Shown here: in pieces, positions 2,976-9,461 of the stretch
Position numbering within the stretch: the first letter of the stretch is position 1
How the letters are laid out: each line of letters begins with the position of its first letter
IMG/VR virus record: IMGVR_UViG_3300028920_000052
Span: 33,596-97,595 of that record
DNA: 64,000 bases
DNA from: a virus
Strand: one strand, 5' to 3'
Notes under the pieces: generated by a model
What the model was told of the DNA's origin: nothing
What the model saw: the letters and a program-made list of their open reading frames with translations, nothing else
Database searches by the model: none
Made by a program: the position numbers and the translations under genes

Positions 2976-3825
2976 CATTTTTGTTATCCTAAAGGCTCTT
3001 TATCCTTTAGTTCTATAGGTTCTTCATTTCCTATAGTTCGGACTATATCATTAATATTTAAATAATTTATAATATTTTCTGTAAAAATGTATAATTGTTC
3101 TATAGTTGCAGAATTTTTCATAGTATTGGCTAAAGTACTTATAACTTTAACATTCCCTTGTATATATCCTTTAGTATTATCAATTCTATCTAAAGATGGT
3201 GAATTTTGATAATTTCCTTTTGTACCTGTAAATAAAGGTATTTTCAGAATTGGGCATATTTCAGGAATTACTATATCATCTAATGTTATATCAAAAAGAA
3301 TATCTTTTTTCAATGCACGTATTTGGGCATTTTTTAATAAACGCTTAGCCACATATCTAGGATATCTTTCTCGTTGTTTATTATTTACATTTTCCCGTAT
3401 AATACTGTCGTCCATTCTATCTTTATAATACTTGCGCTTATTAATATTAACTTTTTCTTTATTTTCACGTCTGTATTTATTTAAATATGCTTTACGTGAG
3501 TTATTATAACATTTTTTGCAACAAGACATATACGATATTTTACCTTTATATTCACCAACTTTATAAAAATCAATTAAAGGCTTAATTTCGCTACATTTTT
3601 TACATTTTTTCATAGTATCTACATTAGTTTATTTACTAATGTAAATATAATAAAATTATTTGAATATTATTCCATTTTCGTGGGAAAAATATACTCCTAT
3701 AATTTATAGGTATCATTTCCTAGTCTCTGCACCTTCAAAAATATTACTATTTAAGCTTGGCTCAAGATTGGCATCTCAGCTTTCCTTGAATTTATGGAAT
3801 TTAGACAGGGCACAATTTAGCATCT
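2976..3825 (-). mobile_element. group I intron 2 in polA (850 nt)
   Basis: 5' exon ends ...CAGGGT and pairs with IGS GCCCTG (U.G at splice site); TTGT pairs with exon 3 start ACAA (P10); P AAATTCAAGGAA (3782-3793), Q AATCTTGAGCCAAG (3756-3769), R GAAGGTGCAGAGACTA (3721-3736), S AATGATATAGTCCG (3039-3052); terminal G at 2976; splicing restores NSPIQG|TNGDIIK. Confidence 0.93.
2984..3613 (-). CDS. intron-encoded HNH/His-Me-type homing endonuclease with N-terminal Zn finger
   Basis: CKKC...CKKC N-terminus; CPIL...SLDRIDNTKGYIQGNV...AN core; lies between R and S, and its 3' end overlaps S/P9. Confidence 0.85.
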   Translation of the reverse strand: MKKCKKCSEIKPLIDFYKVGEYKGKISYMSCCKKCYNNSRKAYLNKYRRENKEKVNINKRKYYKDRMDDSIIRENVNNKQRERYPRYVAKRLLKNAQIRALKKDILFDITLDDIVIPEICPILKIPLFTGTKGNYQNSPSLDRIDNTKGYIQGNVKVISTLANTMKNSATIEQLYIFTENIINYLNINDIVRTIGNEEPIELKDKEPLG

Positions 3826-4317
3826 ACCCTGTATCGGACTATTTTTACTTTTTCTTTCAATACTACCTAAAGATTTATAATCTTCTTTATTTAAAGAAAG
3901 ATTTTTATAATTTTTAAAATAAGATTTCCACTCAGGAAAATATCTTAGTCTTCTATATGGAGCACCTGTTCTAATATATCCTCTTGTTTTACCTAATTCT
4001 CCTAAATGCACTAGAAATGAATATACTTGTGATACTCTAGAAAAGAAGGTTTTAATAAGTTTTTTAGCATCATCTACTGATACTTGTATTGTATCTGCTA
4101 ACTTATATTCTGACATTCCAAAAGCCAATCCAAAATTTATAGTCTTTTGTACATCTCTGTATGTAAATGTAGGTTTTGGTGGAAATGGTTTTTTTACATC
4201 CTTTATAGGAATATTAAATGTCATTGCACATAGTTTAGAGTGCAAATCTTCCCCGTTCTTAAACGCATTAACCCAGGTTGGATCTTGGCTGAATTCTGCT
4301 ATAATTCTGAGTTCCAT
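3826..4317 (-). CDS. polA: DNA polymerase family A, exon 2 (end of motif A, motif B)
   Basis: MELRIIAEFSQD, DLH, RDVQKTINFGLAFG, ERKSKNSPIQG. Confidence 0.92.
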
Positions 4318-5283
4318 CAACAGGTTTTCTTCCTGCTGGACTTTATCTTAACCATATACAATTATATTGTACTTAGGTAATCTCCGTTAAGTCTCTACAC
4401 CTTCCTTATTTCACACAAGGCTTGGCTCGGTATTCCCAACGCTGGTTCACCGAATTTGAAGATTTTGTACTTTAAATGTTTCCAAATAAAGAGGCATATA
4501 ATCTGTTATATTTTCTTTCTAGATAAACAGATGCGTTTTTGTATATTAAATTATATAAAGAAGCTATGTCTTTTTTAGAATATATTCCTATTATGTAAAT
4601 ACTATCTTTTCTACAAGAAACTGTACAATGAATATTATTTTGGGTAAACCACTCTACAAGTTGATTCTTAAATTCTACAGATTGGGTAGCAATTTCAGTC
4701 CTACCAGTAGTTTTTCTAATAAACCCATCTCCATCTATTACTCCTCTAATAAAAGAAGGTGATAGTGAAATATTCATTTTAATAGTTTTACTTTTTCTGG
4801 GAGTTATTCCAAGATTTCTCAAGAATAAATTACAAGATTTATTTTTGAATACGACTCTATATTCAATAGAATTAAACTTTTTACTAAAAACTGTTCTTAT
4901 AGGTACCTTTGAAAATTTTGAATACTTTTTTATATGTTCTAAATCTTTTTCTTGTAATCCTAAAGATACTACATATTCTTTATCTCCTATAGTTCCATCA
5001 GAAGCAAGCATACCTAACCAATATTGCACTTCTTCATTTTCTAAATCTAAAAATGGATTAAGTACTTTACTTTGAGCTTCTGATTGATTTCTTGGAATTA
5101 TTCTATTTCTTAATAATATTCTTCTAATAGTAGTATTATAAGTTTTTAACTCTAAAGCTAATTGTTTCGTAGTCTTACCCTGTAAATATTCTTTAACTAT
5201 TTGTTCTTCATTATATTTTAACATACGTATAATTATTGATTCGGCAATATATACCACAATAATCATACCAATTTTTATCTTCT
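4318..5283 (-). mobile_element. group I intron 1 in polA (966 nt)
   Basis: interrupts motif A DYSG|MELR; exon ends in T, intron ends in G (4318); P AAATTCGGTGAA (4446-4457), Q AATACCGAGCCAAG (4421-4434), R GAAGGTGTAGAGACT (4390-4404), S AAGATAAAGTCC (4338-4349). Confidence 0.92.
4472..5266 (-). CDS. intron-encoded double-motif LAGLIDADG homing endonuclease
   Basis: YWLGMLASDG and FIRGVIDGDG motifs, N-terminal HTH-like segment; real start may be ATG at 5224. Confidence 0.9.
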   Translation of the reverse strand: MIIVVYIAESIIIRMLKYNEEQIVKEYLQGKTTKQLALELKTYNTTIRRILLRNRIIPRNQSEAQSKVLNPFLDLENEEVQYWLGMLASDGTIGDKEYVVSLGLQEKDLEHIKKYSKFSKVPIRTVFSKKFNSIEYRVVFKNKSCNLFLRNLGITPRKSKTIKMNISLSPSFIRGVIDGDGFIRKTTGRTEIATQSVEFKNQLVEWFTQNNIHCTVSCRKDSIYIIGIYSKKDIASLYNLIYKNASVYLERKYNRLYASLFGNI

Positions 5284-6465
5284 ACCGCTGTAGTCTCCAC
5301 CAACAATTTTATATCCTTCTCTAGGTATAAAAGCACTTCTAATTTCTTTACCAAATTCTCCATGTGAAGGGATTTGATTTAGGTTAGGTTCTGATACTGA
5401 GATTCTTCCAGTTGCCAATATTTGCCATACATTATAATGAACTCTTTTAGTAACAGAATTTATATGTTTTAAAAAGTTCATACCAAAAGCATCAGCAAGT
5501 TTATTATGTTTACTGTAATTTATTAATAGGGAAACTAATGAATGGCTAAACTTATTTTTTTGCAGTATTCTATCTCCTACAGAGTCAATTTTTAATCCTA
5601 ATTCTCTTAATATTTCTAATTTCTGTTGATTTGACTTCCAATTTATGTAAGTATCTCTTTCTGTATTATCAAAGAAAAGATTTCCTTGTTTATATATTGT
5701 ACAATATTTAGTTAAAGCATTAGTATTCGGTAAATCTTTAGTACCTAATTTATAAATTAAAGTATCCATTTCTTTTTCTACATCATCTCTAATTTTTGAA
5801 GCTTTAATTGCAACATTTTTCCATTTATCAGTGTCTACTCTAATCCCAGTGTACTCCATCCTAGCAAATACTTTTACTACTTCATTTTCTAAATTTAATG
5901 TGTTTTCTAACCCTAAAGTTTTTATTTTTGGCAATTGTAAGTCTTTGATTTTACCTAAATACTTTACATCATTACATCCATAAACTATTACTCTATCTGA
6001 TAATCCTTCAGAATGTATTTTTCCTCTTATTTCTTTATCTAATTCAACATTAAGGTACTTCTTTGCTATACCTTTTAAACTTACATCTCTTTCTTCATCT
6101 GAATATCCAGTAGTTAGAATGCATTCAGCAAGAAATGTATCATAAATATTTTCTACAACTAGATTATTATGATAAAGAAATTTTAAATCAAATTTTGCGT
6201 TTTGAAATAAAAATAACTTAGACTTATCTGCAAATAAAGGTATAAAAACTGAAGAATCTATACTACTCCAATCAATAAAAAATTGATTATCATAATCTCC
6301 TAATTGTAAAGATATTACTCTTTTAGTATAAGGGTCAAATCCTTCAGTTTCTGTATCTACTCCTATTTCTTTTAAACTATTACAATATTCAAGACAATCT
6401 TGAATACTTGCTAGTTTTATATCTTCATTTTCAATTCTTTTTTGATTACTGACTAAGTATATCAT
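5284..6465 (-). CDS. polA: DNA polymerase family A, exon 1 (3'-5' exonuclease and N-part of polymerase); spliced product about 637 aa
   Basis: ExoI VDTETEG, ExoII QNAKFDL, ExoIII YGCND; TGRISVSEPNLNQIP; motif A start GDYSG. Confidence 0.93.
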
Positions 6466-6866: not shown

Positions 6867-6901
6867 AGTTATTCTTTGGTTTAATCATACCTACTAGGTA
6901 G

Positions 6902-7216
6902 TTAGCGTCCAGTTTGCCATTGTTCATTGCAATCATCACACTCAAATGTATTCTCGTTTACCCAATAATAAACTAATTTACTTCCGCATCTAGGGCAAAC
7001 CGTACCCTTACCCACAGGCTCAACGCTCTCGCTAACAGCGGGTATAGAACAGTTTTTTAACCCTGCTTTTACCAATGGAATTAAGCCATCAACAATTTTG
7101 GTCAAACTTTCTCTTGGTATATATTCATATCCTGTTTCATTCTCTGGCATATATTCATACACTTTGTGTTTCCAAAATTGTTTATCCAAATAATCTACTA
7201 TTTTATCTCTATTCAT
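6902..7216 (-). CDS. cassette 1 ORF, C-terminal Zn ribbon
   Basis: CPRCGS...CDDC; stop TAA lies within the GTTA core site at 6901. Confidence 0.75.
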   Translation of the reverse strand: MNRDKIVDYLDKQFWKHKVYEYMPENETGYEYIPRESLTKIVDGLIPLVKAGLKNCSIPAVSESVEPVGKGTVCPRCGSKLVYYWVNENTFECDDCNEQWQTGR

Positions 7217-7270
7217 ATTTCTACTTTTAAGTCGTTAAAAAACCGATTCCATACCTGAGTACCGTTAGCG
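7030..7270 (+). repeat. attC-like site 1 (241 bp)
   Basis: left arm CGCTAAC-AGC-GGGTATAGAACAGTTTTTTAAC; right arm GTTAAAAAACCGATTCCATACCT-GAGTACC-GTTAGCG. Confidence 0.8.
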
Positions 7271-7477
7271 GTAATACTGGTTTAACGCTAAGTTTCGTTC
7301 GCAAAATGCACATATCTTTTTATGTTGTTTACTAAACACAACATATTTACATCTATCGCAAGGGTCTTCATCATTTTCTGTCAGAGTAGGTGTTCCATAT
7401 TTGTAAATGGAAGTACTACCGCTAACAATGCGTATAATCCATTGCTTGCATTCTGCTAATTTGTTAAGTATCTTCAT
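7265..7477 (-). CDS. cassette 2 ORF, Cys-rich small protein
   Basis: CDRC...CAFC; stop within core site at 7264; reads through attC left arm (WIIRIVSGS). Confidence 0.7.
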   Translation of the reverse strand: MKILNKLAECKQWIIRIVSGSTSIYKYGTPTLTENDEDPCDRCKYVVFSKQHKKICAFCERNLALNQYYR

Positions 7478-7547
7478 TTTATAATTTTTAGTTGTTAATT
7501 AAAGTTTCGGCTATTAAACGCAACGTATCATACGCTCACCGTTGTGG
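7420..7547 (+). repeat. attC-like site 2 (128 bp)
   Basis: CGCTAAC-AAT-GCGTATAATCCATTGC ... GCAACGTATCATACGC-TCACC-GTTGTGG. Confidence 0.8.
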
Positions 7548-7571
7548 TGCATTAAAACGTTCGCTCCGCCA

Positions 7572-7747
7572 CCACAACATGCAATATACTGCATGGCTTT
7601 GTAGTGGCTTCGATTAAACGTCTGTGCCAATTTACCGTAATTAAACATTTTTATATCGCACAAATAAATATTTCCAATGCCTTTGTCCAGTATCGTCAAA
7701 CACATAATGCATCTAATCCGCAACTAATCTTATACAAACCGTTATGC
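7572..7747 (+). repeat. attC-like site 3 (arms poorly matched, probably chimeric)
   Basis: inverse core CCACAAC at 7572, core GTTATGC at 7741; inner arms ATATACTGCATGGC and GCAACTAATCTTATAC do not pair well. Confidence 0.6.
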
Positions 7748-7754
7748 GTAATAG

Positions 7755-7997
7755 CTATAACTTTTCCAATTGTCCTATACAGTGTTTCAAACACATTAAA
7801 TTCCATTCTTTCCAATACCTAGCATCCTCTTTATTTGTTTTTATTACAGTTCTTAAAGTTCCATTTACGTATTTAATCAAACCTTTAGGTTCGCTACTAC
7901 GCATAACACCGTATAAAACAAATAGCTCTTTATCTGCTTGTTTTGGTGTTATTTTACCTTCTGCAACTTTCTGTAAAATTTTAATTCTATTTTTCAT
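7755..7997 (-). CDS. cassette 4 ORF, hypothetical protein
   Basis: 80 aa; start in attC loop, reads through left arm (ELFVLYGVMRS). Confidence 0.7.
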   Translation of the reverse strand: MKNRIKILQKVAEGKITPKQADKELFVLYGVMRSSEPKGLIKYVNGTLRTVIKTNKEDARYWKEWNLMCLKHCIGQLEKL

Positions 7998-8031
7998 ATC
8001 TCGCTACTTGTCTTATACATCAACGTTATGG
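7901..8031 (+). repeat. attC-like site 4 (131 bp)
   Basis: GCATAAC-ACC-GTATAAAACAAATAGC ... GCTACTTGTCTTATAC-ATCAAC-GTTATGG; 14/16 arm match, both mismatches become G.T on the bottom strand. Confidence 0.82.
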
Positions 8032-8067: not shown

Positions 8068-8107
8068 AAAAAAAATAAGCCCTACACACATTACTGTATG
8101 TAGAGCT
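8068..8107 (-). terminator. intrinsic terminator
   Basis: minus strand AGCTCTACATACA-GTAA-TGTGTGTAGGGCT followed by TATTTTTTTT; GNRA loop and G.U pairs. Confidence 0.8.
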
Positions 8108-8123
8108 ATATTTAGTTTATGGT

Positions 8124-8609
8124 TTATTTACGTGCTGCAAATTCAGTATTTGCTTCTGTTTTTGAAGCAACTGGCTCCCTATCCATACCAAGTTTTACAT
8201 CTTCTTCTACTGAACTTTCAGGAAGAACTAAAGTATTCCTATAAACAGGAGCACCTTCAAATGTAATAGTTTCATTAGTACTAGGGTTAATTTTTGGGCT
8301 ATGTCCTTCGTAAGCTGGTTCAAAAGATTCTTTAATAACCAATTTAACAGGAAACATTTTCACTGAAAAATCCATTCCTTCTTTTAGTCCATAAGTTTCA
8401 ACATCTTTTACAAGATCTTCAACTTTACCTACATACCTACCTACTCTTTTTTCTTCTTGCCTAAATCCGCCATCATTGATAGATAGAGTATTACTACGTA
8501 ACATAATAAATCCAAATTCAGGATTATTAGCATTTACAGTAATAATAGGATACTTCTCATGTGGAGTTGAGTTGTTGTAATTTTCGGGTTTTGAAATAAT
8601 TGCTTTCAT
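8124..8609 (-). CDS. conserved crAss-like early protein, possibly ssDNA-binding
   Basis: likely ATG at 8609; beta-rich, PKINP...GAPVYR motif; function inferred from recollection of crAss-like proteins only. Confidence 0.5.
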   Translation of the reverse strand: MKAIISKPENYNNSTPHEKYPIITVNANNPEFGFIMLRSNTLSINDGGFRQEEKRVGRYVGKVEDLVKDVETYGLKEGMDFSVKMFPVKLVIKESFEPAYEGHSPKINPSTNETITFEGAPVYRNTLVLPESSVEEDVKLGMDREPVASKTEANTEFAARK

Positions 8610-8750
8610 TTTTGTAAGAGTTTTGATTAGTAATTTATTTAATTTTGTAAAGTTTTGTTGAAGTTTTGTCAGAGTATTCAACTTTCCTCTGTCATTTCTA
8701 TCTCAGTATTATATTTACTGCAAGAGTAGAATATGAATTAGTATTTTTAA

Positions 8751-9461
8751 TTATTCTTTAATCCAACTTATAAATGTTGGAAGATATGTATCTAATTTTA
8801 AATCTTTGATAATCTTTGCTCTACATTTATATTTTTCTATAAAAGCTGCTTCATTAAATTCTTTATAAGCCATAACATTATGAAGAGCTTCTAATATTCT
8901 AGATGTAACAATTTCGTATTTATCTAATTTAGAAGCAAGTTTTAAAGTCTCTTTTGTTTCTTCTAAAAGATTTATTCTAAAATTACCATCTTTTACTATA
9001 TATAAAGTATTTTTATTACTACTTCTAGAATGTAGCAATCTACATATAGTATCTATAGTGTATCTTGTTCTACTTTTAACAGATACTGCTTGTACATAAT
9101 CTGCATAACCCAACATAGCATACGCTTTAACATAGTCCATTGTAGCCCATCTTTTTTGAGTACTATTCAAAGTAGAAACAAAATTAACTAATTTTGGCAC
9201 AGATTTGAATTTTAAATCCAATACATTTGCGTAAAAAGGAATATCCATAGATAATGCAGTAGCCATTCTATGTTGACCGTCTACGACATAACTTTCTTTT
9301 TCTCCAGTTATTATGTCGGTTTGAATAACTAAAATAGGATGAATAAATCCATATTTATGCATACTTTCTTGTAAGACTTTTCTTACATGGAATTCTCTGT
9401 TAAAAGGTAAAACTTTTAAATCTTTCCCAGTTGTGTACTTTACTAATTTTATGTTTTTCAA
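8751..9461 (-). CDS. ParB/Srx-like N-terminal domain protein
   Basis: GFIHPILV...VVDGQHRM signature. Confidence 0.75.
   Translation of the reverse strand: MKNIKLVKYTTGKDLKVLPFNREFHVRKVLQESMHKYGFIHPILVIQTDIITGEKESYVVDGQHRMATALSMDIPFYANVLDLKFKSVPKLVNFVSTLNSTQKRWATMDYVKAYAMLGYADYVQAVSVKSRTRYTIDTICRLLHSRSSNKNTLYIVKDGNFRINLLEETKETLKLASKLDKYEIVTSRILEALHNVMAYKEFNEAAFIEKYKCRAKIIKDLKLDTYLPTFISWIKE

Follow-up and report, generated by a model that had tools for sequence, protein, structure and literature searches.

A probable orphan array of protein-coding hairpin sites, integron-like but probably not an integron, in a phage genome

We analyzed a 64,000-nucleotide stretch (the window, to which all coordinates refer) of a 97.6-kb phage genome, IMG/VR record IMGVR_UViG_3300028920_000052. 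A motif scan found seven copies of a two-box motif, ATAC-N2-10-GTTA[GT][GC], between positions 6901 and 8031. The copies alternate strictly between strands, and the cluster is the sole array of its kind in the whole genome. One form of the second box, GTTAGCG, occurs four times in the 64 kb against an expectation of 0.69; all four lie inside 6901-7426 on alternating strands, and none of 100 shuffles matched this count. The motif copies are the paired feet of hairpin sites with the layout TAAC-spacer-GTAT-stem-loop-stem-ATAC-spacer-GTTA. An earlier note on this DNA had described a cassette array bounded by attC-like hairpins, and our analysis bears that description out. The following features are listed in the order in which the minus strand is read.

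8078..8107, minus strand: intrinsic terminator, a 13-pair stem followed by a T run
8025(+), 7907(-), 7741(+), 7426(-), 7264(+), 7036(-) and 6901(+): the seven motif copies, from a wider-motif scan
7901..8031, minus strand: hairpin site S1, 131 nt, with 16-nt arms that are 88% complementary
7755-7997, minus strand: ORF4, 80 aa, start codon at 7997
7741..7907, minus strand: cassette body C4, with complementary ends GTTATGCGTAGTAGC / GCTATTACGCATAAC (15 nt, 93%)
7420..7748, minus strand: site S2, decayed, 329 nt
7514-7723: ORF3, doubtful
7540..7579, minus strand: ORF-less 40-nt unit ('empty cassette'), made of GTTGTGGTG, a 20-nt loop and CACCACAAC
7265-7477, minus strand: ORF2, 70 aa, start codon at 7477, a small CxxC...CxxC protein
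7264..7426, minus strand: cassette body C2, with complementary ends GTTAGCGGTAGTACT / AGTATTACCGCTAAC (15 nt, 93%)
7030..7270, minus strand: hairpin site S3, 241 nt
6902-7216, minus strand: ORF1, 104 aa, start codon at 7216
6901..7036, minus strand: cassette body C1, whose ends have only the 7-nt core in common (4/14 positions complementary)
6887..6907, minus strand: terminal half-site at the end of the array, CGCTAAC, a 10-nt spacer and GTAT, without a partner arm

The terminator follows a 185-aa ORF (8124-8681) and immediately precedes the array as transcription runs. On the minus strand, S1 opens with CCATAAC (8031-8025), a 6-nt spacer and GTAT with its 16-nt stem (8018-8003), and closes with the returning stem and ATAC (7926-7911), a 3-nt spacer and GTTATGC (7907-7901). 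Its 76-nt loop contains the start of ORF4. The stem has 10 Watson-Crick pairs, 2 G·T pairs and 0 A·C pairs, and the site is 88% identical to one in phage contig L045. When S1 was folded in isolation (137 nt), the free-energy optimum was a competing local hairpin, not the S1 stem. S3 carries CGCTAAC, a 9-nt spacer and GTATGGAA on its TAAC side, and TTCTATAC, a 5-nt spacer and GTTAGCG on its GTTA side. A perfect 10-bp stem (7243-7234 with 7061-7052) encloses a loop of ~172 nt that holds the ORF1 start codon and the N-terminal module of ORF1. The predicted fold of S3 has an energy of -26.5 kcal/mol (z = -3.6; 0/200 shuffles as stable), and its long-range stems are present in both the optimum and the centroid folds.

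S2 has boxes at both ends (CGCATAAC-GGTTT-GTAT at 7748-7732 and ATAC-GCATT-GTTAGCG at 7435-7420), and its arms beyond the boxes are complementary at just 3 of 14 positions. It contains ORF3, the ORF-less unit and the start of ORF2. We rejected ORF3 as a gene: its most conserved 40 bp lie in another frame in a Nonlabens phage. The 40-nt unit is flanked by a GTT box and an AAC box. An intergenic site of Nonlabens phage P12024L matches it at 97.5% identity, and the annotated ORF that overlaps this site uses a different reading frame. Five IMG/VR contigs carry the unit, including the P12024L genome itself, and in contig L017 it is placed exactly between two cassette joints. blastn searches of cultured phages with this region returned matches limited to the 40-bp unit. 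tblastn searches of cultured phages with ORF1, ORF2 and ORF4 gave no matches, nor did single-protein locus searches.

ORF1, ORF2 and ORF4 start in hairpin loops and read through the 3' arm, and the sites are hence protein-coding, as had been proposed. The start codons, quoted peptides, core stop codons of ORF1 and ORF2, and 241-bp span (7030-7270) given for them were all reproduced. ORF4 starts in the S1 loop and crosses the ATAC/GTTATG arm as LYGVMRS; the longer peptide LFVLYGVMRS spans CGCATAAC at 7900-7907. Its stop codon, TAG at 7755-7757, lies one base inside the arm 7741-7755 and is not a core TTA. ORF2 starts in S2 and reads ATAC-GCATT-GTTAGCG as IIRIVSGS (WIIRIVSGS across CGCTAAC 7420-7426), and ORF1 reads NCSIPAVSES across CGCTAAC 7030-7036. 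Both of these ORFs stop at the TTA within GTTAGCG, the TAA of CGCTAAC (7265-7267 for ORF2 and 6902-6904 for ORF1).

At the level of protein sequence, homologues of the window ORFs are chimeras of N- and C-terminal parts joined at the site inside the ORF. The N-module of ORF1 (residues 1 to ~60) is encoded by the S3 loop, and its C-module, a zinc ribbon matching the Zn_ribbon_IS1595 profile (27.4 bits), is encoded by cassette C1. The same N-module, at 71-89% identity, is found in 14 proteins with unrelated or absent C-termini, and the zinc ribbon reappears behind other N-termini in proteins P0017 and P0018. Protein P0027 carries the ORF2 C-module behind another N-module of ~50 aa, with the joint at IFDV/SGS. 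ORF4, which has a weakly SHOCT-like N-terminus, has six homologues with 71-93% identity across the matched part; in P0025, an ORF4 homologue, a different N-terminus is joined just before EPKGL. The earlier note had predicted that unrelated proteins would share a site-coded peptide, and the pattern [IL]-x-x-V-[SM] is indeed found as IPDVS, IFDVSGS, LYGVM, IYDVSQRS, LYVVSSS and IYRVSGS. Its expectation that homologues of these ORFs would always be accompanied by the arms failed in part, for the ORF1 N-module: distant homologues of this module occur without hairpin arms. The N-module is therefore an ordinary small domain that in this phage was captured in a loop.

A shared peptide could also mean that these are ordinary small paralogous genes with a conserved motif and that their inverted repeats arose by chance. 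In its favour, both ORF1 and ORF2 have a C-terminal zinc ribbon, and hydrophobic-x-x-V-S/M is common to the three ORFs. We find this explanation scarcely credible. The modules that flank the motif are of unrelated sequence, and reverse-complement copies of the motif lie at or after stop codons. The ATAC box is read in two frames, as Tyr with a 3-nt spacer or as Ile plus Pro/Arg with a 5-nt spacer, and is found in non-coding DNA too; the conserved signal is therefore nucleic acid and not peptide. Counts of motifs, tail matches, block ends and covarying pairs (below) far exceed chance. The two-frame and non-coding occurrences of ATAC, the complementarity of cassette ends and the covariation of stems refute the paralogous-gene explanation.

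We identified ~30 sites of this family in phage contigs L045, L051, L014, L016-L018 and L003, and the family is also present in Polaribacter phage P12002L and in bacterial and MAG contigs. The surveyed contigs are metagenome assemblies, except for two cultured phages. A 17-mer scan of bacterial genomes gave 53 matches compared with ~140 chance matches by a rough uniform-composition estimate, and we retained a locus only if it had an array or a complete hairpin as well; matches in a 15-mer scan for the C4 arm were mostly chance. In Parapedobacter the same hairpin stands alone between ordinary chromosomal genes. Compact relatives mostly measure ~90-125 bp from core to core, compared with 131, 329 and 241 bp for the window sites. 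An in-frame ATG within the site followed by at least 30 open codons beyond it was found in 6 of 30 sites.

The aligned sites behave as folded elements. TAAC/GTTA is invariant in all 20 aligned sites, and 88.3% of stem cells are paired, compared with 66.8% in shuffles (0/500 reach the observed value). Double-sided stem changes number 113, against 43 in shuffles, and compensatory change occurs at 15 of 20 stem pairs. Two G·T pairs are fixed, on the coding strand. Over all sites we counted 231 Watson-Crick, 44 G·T and 2 A·C pairs (p = 3e-11), and the strand that folds is therefore a single one, the coding strand. In nearly all sites the spacer of the TAAC arm exceeds that of the GTTA arm by 1-7 nt (commonest 8/5, 6/3 and 5/3), and the extra unpaired nucleotides of the folding strand are on the AAC-bearing arm.

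We compared the sequences flanking the boxes across sites and across cassettes. The 10 nt after GTTA match at 73% of positions across a cassette and at 38% across a site (background 37%), whereas the 10 nt before ATAC match at 62% across a site and at 24% across a cassette (P ~5e-4 for each). The two ends of a cassette are complementary to each other over 8-15 nt. Homology between contigs also breaks at the cores: 31 of 156 internal homology-block ends lie within 10 nt of a core, compared with 3.5 expected. Three blocks, 98.5-100% identical, are arranged differently in contigs L016 and L017, and their joints fall within CGTTAG or at AAC. The core common to these joints is just 5-6 nt, although conserved blocks of 13-17 nt adjoin it. 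The window and L045 also have a block in common, which begins at the GTAT box of S1 and extends slightly beyond the TAAC and GTAT boxes at the end of cassette C4. Boundaries occur at both box types, at TAAC in these contig comparisons and at GTTA in the protein chimeras, which an integron-type reaction with cleavage of one strand at one box would not predict.

We searched for an enzyme that might act on these sites. The 97.6-kb phage genome contains no tyrosine (PF00589), serine or HUH recombinase that we could find, and its array is therefore an orphan. Some related phages encode a 267-274-aa Xer-like tyrosine recombinase beside the array (267 aa at L131:1468-2271 and 274 aa at L132:1456-2280, both on the minus strand). 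Sites lie no more than 700 nt upstream of the recombinase gene in 5 of 10 homologous loci, and the GTTAGCGGTA box of cassette C2 also adjoins the recombinase gene of a related phage (L146, L147). Any tyrosine recombinase is encoded in only 3 of 10 array-bearing viral records, and the link between recombinase and site is thus partial. An integron integrase was defined as a TIGR02249 match of at least 265 bits that includes the IntI-specific insertion. Recombinases encoded beside related arrays reach 148-161 bits and leave the IntI-specific region unmatched. In five hairpin-bearing bacterial genomes the best TIGR02249 score was 122 bits, with model positions 180-240 (IntI-specific) unmatched. 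No IntI was found in 301 sampled genomes from the family of a hairpin-carrying Flavobacterium MAG, a search run without a positive control.

The hairpins could instead act in early mRNA, as processing, stabilizing or translation-start signals that present an A-rich leader and start codon in a loop. Module exchange would then be a by-product of short conserved sequences, as in the PeSLs of T4-type phages, documented regulatory cassettes that drive shuffling; these promoter-plus-terminator units act as direct repeats in homologous recombination (Arbiol et al. 2010, PMC2839356). Like PeSLs, the hairpins are short conserved stem-loops that separate small, variable genes in the early region of a lytic phage and mark where related phages swap modules. 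It is the transcribed strand that folds, and its helix, which otherwise covaries, keeps two wobble pairs fixed; invariant G·U-type pairs on that strand suit an RNA role and recombination equally well. By eye, the loops hold A-rich leaders, TAnnTTTG-like strings and start codons, and an array that follows directly after a terminator may need signals of its own. A sigma-70 scan gave no excess of promoter-like sites (9 compared with 11.2 expected), Bacteroidota promoters being outside the model of that scan. The use of both boxes as boundaries and the scarcity of recombinase genes, lacking in this phage and most relatives, also fit a role in mRNA. We nevertheless consider such a role unlikely as the explanation of the array, while ranking it above the other alternatives discussed here. 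The joint core of 5-6 nt is shorter than homologous exchange requires and recurs too regularly to be an accident, and an RNA signal gives no prediction of cassette ends complementary over 8-15 nt. No Rfam family matches the window region or seven loci that were searched, and the Xer-like gene adjoins arrays in some relatives. Unlike PeSLs, the elements here have covarying stems, complementary cassette ends and such a short joint core, and can be coding. Their hairpins lack T runs, and the sites are inverted rather than direct repeats.

We compared the array to integrons. Integron attC sites are roughly 55-141 bp long, a range that S1 and the compact relatives fit and that S2 (329 bp) and S3 (241 bp) exceed. 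As in attC, each site is an imperfect hairpin with an R box, an unpaired central spacer, an L box and a variable terminal structure. As in integrons, a cassette start complements its own inverse core and the sites of the array are hybrids. Of the consensus RYYYAAC...GTTRRRY, AAC/GTT is invariant; the remainder fits some copies only (e.g. GTTAGGC), and GTTAGCG and GTTATGC of the window deviate at one or two positions. Crossover in integrons takes place in the AAC/GTT triplet of one box only (PMC5027507); the joints here lie inside CGTTAG or at AAC, with both box types serving as boundaries. The units are small and carry single genes, their sites are closed by AAC/GTT with joints at GTT, stop codons often fall in the AAC box, and G·T pairs favour one strand. 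No integrase lies nearby, which is also the defining trait of CALINs. The array might therefore be a true integron cassette cluster without integrase, its attC sites acquired from a bacterial host and recombined by the IntI of that host. Boxes, site layout, complementary cassette ends and GTT joints all mirror attC (PMC5027507). CALINs have been reported from virulent phages including Polaribacter phage P12002L, in which attC2 recombined with IntI1 and P12002L_attC1 failed to do so (Qi et al. 2023, PMC9892861). In P12002L the methyltransferase gene gp35 lies between the published attC1 and attC2, and we found the window's box type in this phage at the gene ends gp42 and gp58.

Several observations make a CALIN improbable, and we rate it below a role in mRNA. 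IntI is absent from the phage and, by the searches above, from the five bacterial genomes and the 301 family genomes (the last without a positive control), and the recombinases beside related arrays fall far under the IntI cut-off. The sites have a GTAT/ATAC box of their own, unequal spacers and two fixed G·T pairs, and two of the three window sites are far longer than attC. In integrons, the G:T-rich strand antisense to the ORFs is recombined, and extra-helical bases lie on the arm opposite AAC (PMC5027507). Here the G·T-rich strand is the coding strand, and the extra bases lie on the AAC arm. There is also no promoterless ORF wholly between sites: ORF1, ORF2 and ORF4 start inside the upstream site, and the loops hold leader sequences, start codons and as many as 60 codons. 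The identification of the sites as integron attC in the earlier note was not supported. Its view that the layout is inverted is upheld by the G·T bias, with folding and coding strands coinciding in opposition to canonical attC, and contradicted by the arm that bears extra unpaired bases, which implies the canonical ORF direction. The R boxes are symmetric and uninformative on polarity.

Other mobile systems share some traits with the array. The pdif modules of Acinetobacter plasmids are bounded by XerC/XerD sites, which are 28-bp double-stranded sequences with two 11-bp arms and a 6-bp spacer. They resemble the array in their discrete modules, the alternating orientation of their sites and an Xer-type tyrosine recombinase as presumed agent, but the sites here are hairpins of 80-330 nt. 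We rejected a double-stranded dif/pdif-type site because the stems covary rather than stay conserved. Shufflons and phage tail-fibre segments (R64 Rci/sfx, Mu Gin/gix) invert within one genome under a resident recombinase and encode alternative C-termini on both strands. They too place a site inside coding sequence, which allows a given N-terminal part to be combined with alternative C-terminal parts. Here no recombinase is present and the variation occurs between genomes. An invertible segment was rejected: there is no invertase, and the reverse frames of two of the three cassettes meet a stop after 21-30 codons. A MITE with target-site duplication was rejected for lack of direct repeats beside the arms. 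IS200/IS605-type hairpin ends were rejected since there is no HUH transposase and the arms are inverted, not direct. A diversity-generating retroelement or retron was likewise set aside, as analyses aimed at other elements brought up no template repeat and no reverse transcriptase.

We conclude from these sequence comparisons that 6887-8031 is probably an orphan array, with three cassettes and decayed units, of a hairpin-site shuffling system of Bacteroidota phages that is integron-like yet not an integron. On the coding strand, a site in this model would run from (tail')YTAAC through a 5-10-nt spacer to GTAT with a 10-16-bp stem and the loop, and then from the stem and ATAC through a 3-5-nt spacer to GTTAKS(tail). 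DNA would be cut and rejoined inside the TAAC/GTTA cores, and sites in an array would therefore be hybrids, in which the stem is the site's own and the outer tail belongs to the neighbouring cassette. Cassettes would pass through a joined (circular) form, and complementary cassette tails are as expected for such an intermediate. The folded form would be single-stranded DNA rather than RNA, and the likely enzyme is the 267-274-aa Xer-like tyrosine recombinase. Since this phage lacks the gene, its array would either be frozen or be acted on in trans. Several observations weigh against the model: block boundaries at both box types, the partial link between recombinase and site, the lone hairpins of Parapedobacter and the competing local fold of S1.

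Coding sequence has colonized the loops of the window's sites. ORF4, ORF2 and ORF1 each begin in a loop, cross the ATAC-GTTA arm and finish in a cassette, with the stops of ORF1 and ORF2 in the next TAAC. Since GTT is in every case a Val codon, exchange at the GTTA box would keep the frame and could fuse the N-module of any loop to the C-module of any cassette. We suggest, more tentatively than for the array itself, that Bacteroidota phages may run their own IntI-independent shuffling through folded single-strand sites and a small Xer-like recombinase. Such a system would swap protein halves as well as genes and would be a natural device for exchanging domains among early (host-takeover or anti-defence) proteins.

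If the sites recombine as proposed, phages would trade small early genes in the manner of integrons and without the integron integrase. The recombination site would lie inside a reading frame, and a single exchange would create a new two-part protein. It would be a compact, structure-specific site that tolerates translation. The box pair and the encoded peptide x-x-V-S/M would provide a handle for finding cassettes. The finding also bears on the published reports of attC sites in virulent phages: gene ends in P12002L are marked by similar TAAC/GTTA-closed hairpins and by the window's box type, and the published P12002L sites may therefore belong to a separate family. Shuffling of this kind would partly account for the mosaics of very small, uncharacterized genes in the early regions of phages.

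Window positions 6900-8030 belong to a block of small early-type genes on the minus strand and follow immediately on an intrinsic terminator (8107-8078). The G+C content of this stretch is 29-40%, against roughly 23-31% in the AT-rich flanks. The minus-strand ORFs that the earlier note had claimed for this stretch were found as described, and they are accompanied by copies of a two-box motif:

6902-7216, minus strand: ORF1, 104 aa
7265-7477, minus strand: ORF2, 70 aa
7755-7997, minus strand: ORF4, 80 aa
6901 (+), 7036 (-), 7264 (+), 7426 (-), 7741 (+), 7907 (-) and 8025 (+): seven copies of the two-box motif

The stop codons of ORF1 and ORF2 are the TTA of GTTAGCG, and ORF4 ends in a TAG one base inside an arm. 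GTTAGCG occurs four times in the 64 kb (0.69 expected), on alternating strands and always within 6901-7426; none of 100 shuffles reached four copies. Taken with its flanks, it forms the two-box motif ATAC-N3-10-GTTA(T)GC, which has no second cluster anywhere in the whole genome. What occupies 6900-8030 is an orphan array of cassettes bounded by hairpins; it is real and non-random.

The parent IMG/VR record (97.6 kb, the window being bases 33596-97595) is rated 99% complete; its genes include those for a large terminase, portal and major head proteins, a helicase and a family-A DNA polymerase. The polymerase gene is split (window 2984-6465, minus strand) into pieces at 5275-6465 and 3817-4320 and further ones downstream, with a LAGLIDADG endonuclease ORF (4472-5266) and an HNH/endonuclease VII-like ORF (2984-3613) lying between them. 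This splitting looks like intron or homing-endonuclease insertion. A ParB-like protein (phrog_12305, 1.3e-18; 8751-9461) adjoins an uncharacterised 185-aa protein (8124-8681) that matched no Pfam or PHROGs family and for which the viral contig scan gave no close relative.

The motif copies mark the feet of a hairpin site, one on either side. On the coding strand the site reads (tail')YTAAC, spacer, GTAT plus stem, loop, stem plus ATAC, spacer, GTTAKS(tail). We collected about 30 sites from the window; from locus L006 (the same as L045), which carries an 88%-identical ORF4 homologue and 12 motif copies; from Nonlabens phage P12024L (L014); from other IMG/VR contigs (L003, L016-L018, L051); and from bacterial and MAG contigs (L062-L112), mostly of Bacteroidota. 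Compact sites mostly span about 90-125 nt from core to core, and the TAAC-arm spacer exceeds the GTTA-arm spacer by 1-7 nt in nearly all sites (commonest 8/5, 6/3 and 5/3). To test the structure, 21 sites were aligned (A5), and 88.3% of cells were paired compared with 66.8% in shuffles; none of 500 shuffles equalled it, and sliding the partner columns lowered pairing to 27-48%. Double-sided changes in the stem numbered 113 versus 43, and 15 of 20 stem pairs showed compensatory change. Two pairs, spaced five base pairs apart, stay G·T in 15/20 and 17/20 sites. Across 24 distinct stems we counted 231 Watson-Crick, 44 G·T and 2 A·C pairs (p = 3e-11). This excess of G·T over A·C indicates that one strand folds, namely the coding strand. 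No Rfam family matched in a search.

One 117-nt hairpin variant is 86-100% identical among L107:3478-3613, L062:6-141, L080:5191-5326 and L094:385-520. It occurs at 1-3 copies per genome in a Parapedobacter isolate and in MAGs labelled Flavobacterium, Thermaurantimonas and Deltaproteobacteria, and its loop has a conserved inner sequence with GCGGGCTAC twice. In Parapedobacter it lies between genes for an ABC-transporter permease and a Crp-like regulator, with a tyrosine recombinase gene about 3 kb away.

The window's own sites are as follows:

8031-7901: S1, 131 nt; 16-nt stem (inverted repeat I7) and 76-nt loop with the ORF4 start
7748-7420: S2, decayed; contains a 40-nt ORF-less unit (7579-7540)
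7270-7030: S3, 241 nt; 8-bp GTAT box helix and perfect 10-bp stem (inverted repeat I22)
6907-6887: half-site at the array end

Genes that start inside a site loop, as the earlier note proposed, are real: the ORF4 start lies in the S1 loop, and the S3 loop (about 172 nt) codes for approximately the first 60 residues of ORF1, its N-module. In 6/30 sites an ATG is in frame and at least 30 codons stay open past the site. Both the optimal and the centroid fold of S3 contain its long-range stems (z = -3.6). Folded by itself, S1 takes up a competing local hairpin at minimum energy, and its character as a site rests on comparison, not folding energy. A nested local hairpin inside the 5' part of ORF4 (7903-7952; arms 7903-7924 and 7931-7952), whose internal ATAAC pairs with the site GTTAT, rivals S1's long-range stem and is conserved in L045. 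The 40-nt unit of S2 shares 97.5% identity with an intergenic site of P12024L, where the annotated ORF overlapping it uses a different reading frame. In L017 this unit is placed exactly between two cassette joints.

Homologues of the encoded proteins are chimeric. Fourteen metagenome proteins match the N-module of ORF1 at 71-89% identity and have unrelated C-termini or none; those with a C-terminal part diverge immediately past ...IPDV. The ORF1 zinc ribbon reappears behind other N-termini. In protein P0027 the cassette-coded C-module of ORF2 is preceded by a different N-module, about 50 aa long (joint IFDV/SGS), and in P0025 the C-module of ORF4 follows another N-terminus. These chimeric homologues of ORF1, ORF2 and ORF4 therefore bear out the prediction of a shared site-coded peptide, and the inside-out layout has the consequence drawn from it. 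The tie between ORFs and arms is looser than proposed: distant homologues of the ORF1 N-module do occur alone or with other tails, without the motif. The module is an ordinary small domain, here sitting in a loop. Free-standing versions of 58-66 aa are found on other viral and metagenome contigs (L004:3986-4186, L007:1672-1848), and the module (...YECMPENETGYEYIPRE..KIVDGLIP...) constitutes an unnamed small domain family.

In every one of the ORFs the motif's GTT is read as a Val codon. The ATAC box gives Tyr with a 3-nt spacer (LYGVM, IYDVS) and Ile plus Pro or Arg with a 5-nt spacer (IPAVS, IRIVS). The motif is found 5' of start codons too, and reverse-complement copies lie at or after stop codons. 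The signal resides in nucleic acid rather than peptide. Among regulatory elements, the nearest analogue is the promoter/stem-loop (PeSL) cassette of T4-type phages (PMC2839356), and the array could be primarily an RNA-level element that also seeds recombination, a reading we consider rather doubtful.

Several comparisons are evidence that recombination takes place at the cores. The 10 nt after GTTA match in 73% across a cassette versus 38% across a site (background 37%; P ~5e-4), and the 10 nt before ATAC match in 62% across a site versus 24% across a cassette (P ~5e-4). Array sites are thus hybrids, and a cassette's own ends are complementary. Integron cassettes passing through a joined form leave this signature. 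When the loci were compared all against all by BLAST, 31 of the 156 internal block ends fell within 10 nt of a core (3.5 expected; maximum 9 in 200 trials). L016:3348-5671 and L017:411-1697, from viral contigs of different samples, have three common blocks at 98.5-100% identity in differing order, with joints inside a common CGTTAG or at AAC despite longer conserved blocks adjoining. Nothing else in the data points as clearly to recent cassette shuffling as these permuted blocks. The block common to the window and L045 runs from the S1 GTAT box through ORF4 to just beyond the TAAC and GTAT boxes at the cassette end.

We compared the array to integrons, which it resembles in hairpin architecture, AAC/GTT cores, hybrid sites and joints at GTT. 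Canonical attC sites recombine through a G:T-rich strand that runs antisense to the genes and has its extra-helical bases on the arm opposite AAC (PMC5027507). Here, in contrast, the coding strand is the G·T-rich one, with the extra bases on the same arm as AAC. The sites are thus "inverted", as the earlier note held, by the G·T mark and not by that of the extra bases, and the R boxes are symmetric. Both boxes of array sites act as boundaries, and two sites of the window lie well above the attC size range. The array works like an integron in several tested respects but fails defining features.

Integrase-less attC clusters (CALINs) have been described in virulent phages, including Polaribacter phage P12002L, whose attC2 recombined with IntI1 while attC1 did not (Qi et al. 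2023; PMC9892861). Both flank the methyltransferase gene gp35 (L013 29160-30100). In P12002L the window's box type is present where gp42 and gp58 stop, TAAC/GTTA-closed hairpins adjoin methyltransferase genes, and the gp36 stop seems to fall within the TAA of attC1's GCTAAC. The attC1 loop and the window's 40-nt unit have CGTTTTAATG in common. We found no integron integrase (IntI) in five hairpin-carrying bacterial genomes (best TIGR02249 match 122 bits, cut-off 265, IntI-specific region unmatched), nor in 301 sampled genomes from the family of the hairpin-carrying Flavobacterium MAG G004, a search run without a positive control. Despite the P12002L precedent, a true IntI-serviced CALIN is improbable.

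No tyrosine, serine or HUH recombinase was found in this phage; the window's array is an orphan. Three of ten array-bearing viral records encode a tyrosine recombinase. On the contigs of L016 and L051, genes for a 267-aa and a 274-aa recombinase (35% identity) lie a few hundred bases from the array. Both best match an archaeal XerA-type NCBIfam model (175-193 bits, cut-off 220) and score 148-161 bits on the IntI model, under its cut-off of 265. Among loci with homologues of these recombinases, 5/10 have sites at most 700 nt upstream of the gene, and the GTTAGCGGTA box of window cassette C2 also occurs in one pair of them. The link between array sites and a small Xer-like recombinase, the putative enzyme, is real but partial. 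Setting aside other readings, which take up the remainder, we think that the array probably belongs to a DNA-level, integron-like recombination system that is independent of IntI.
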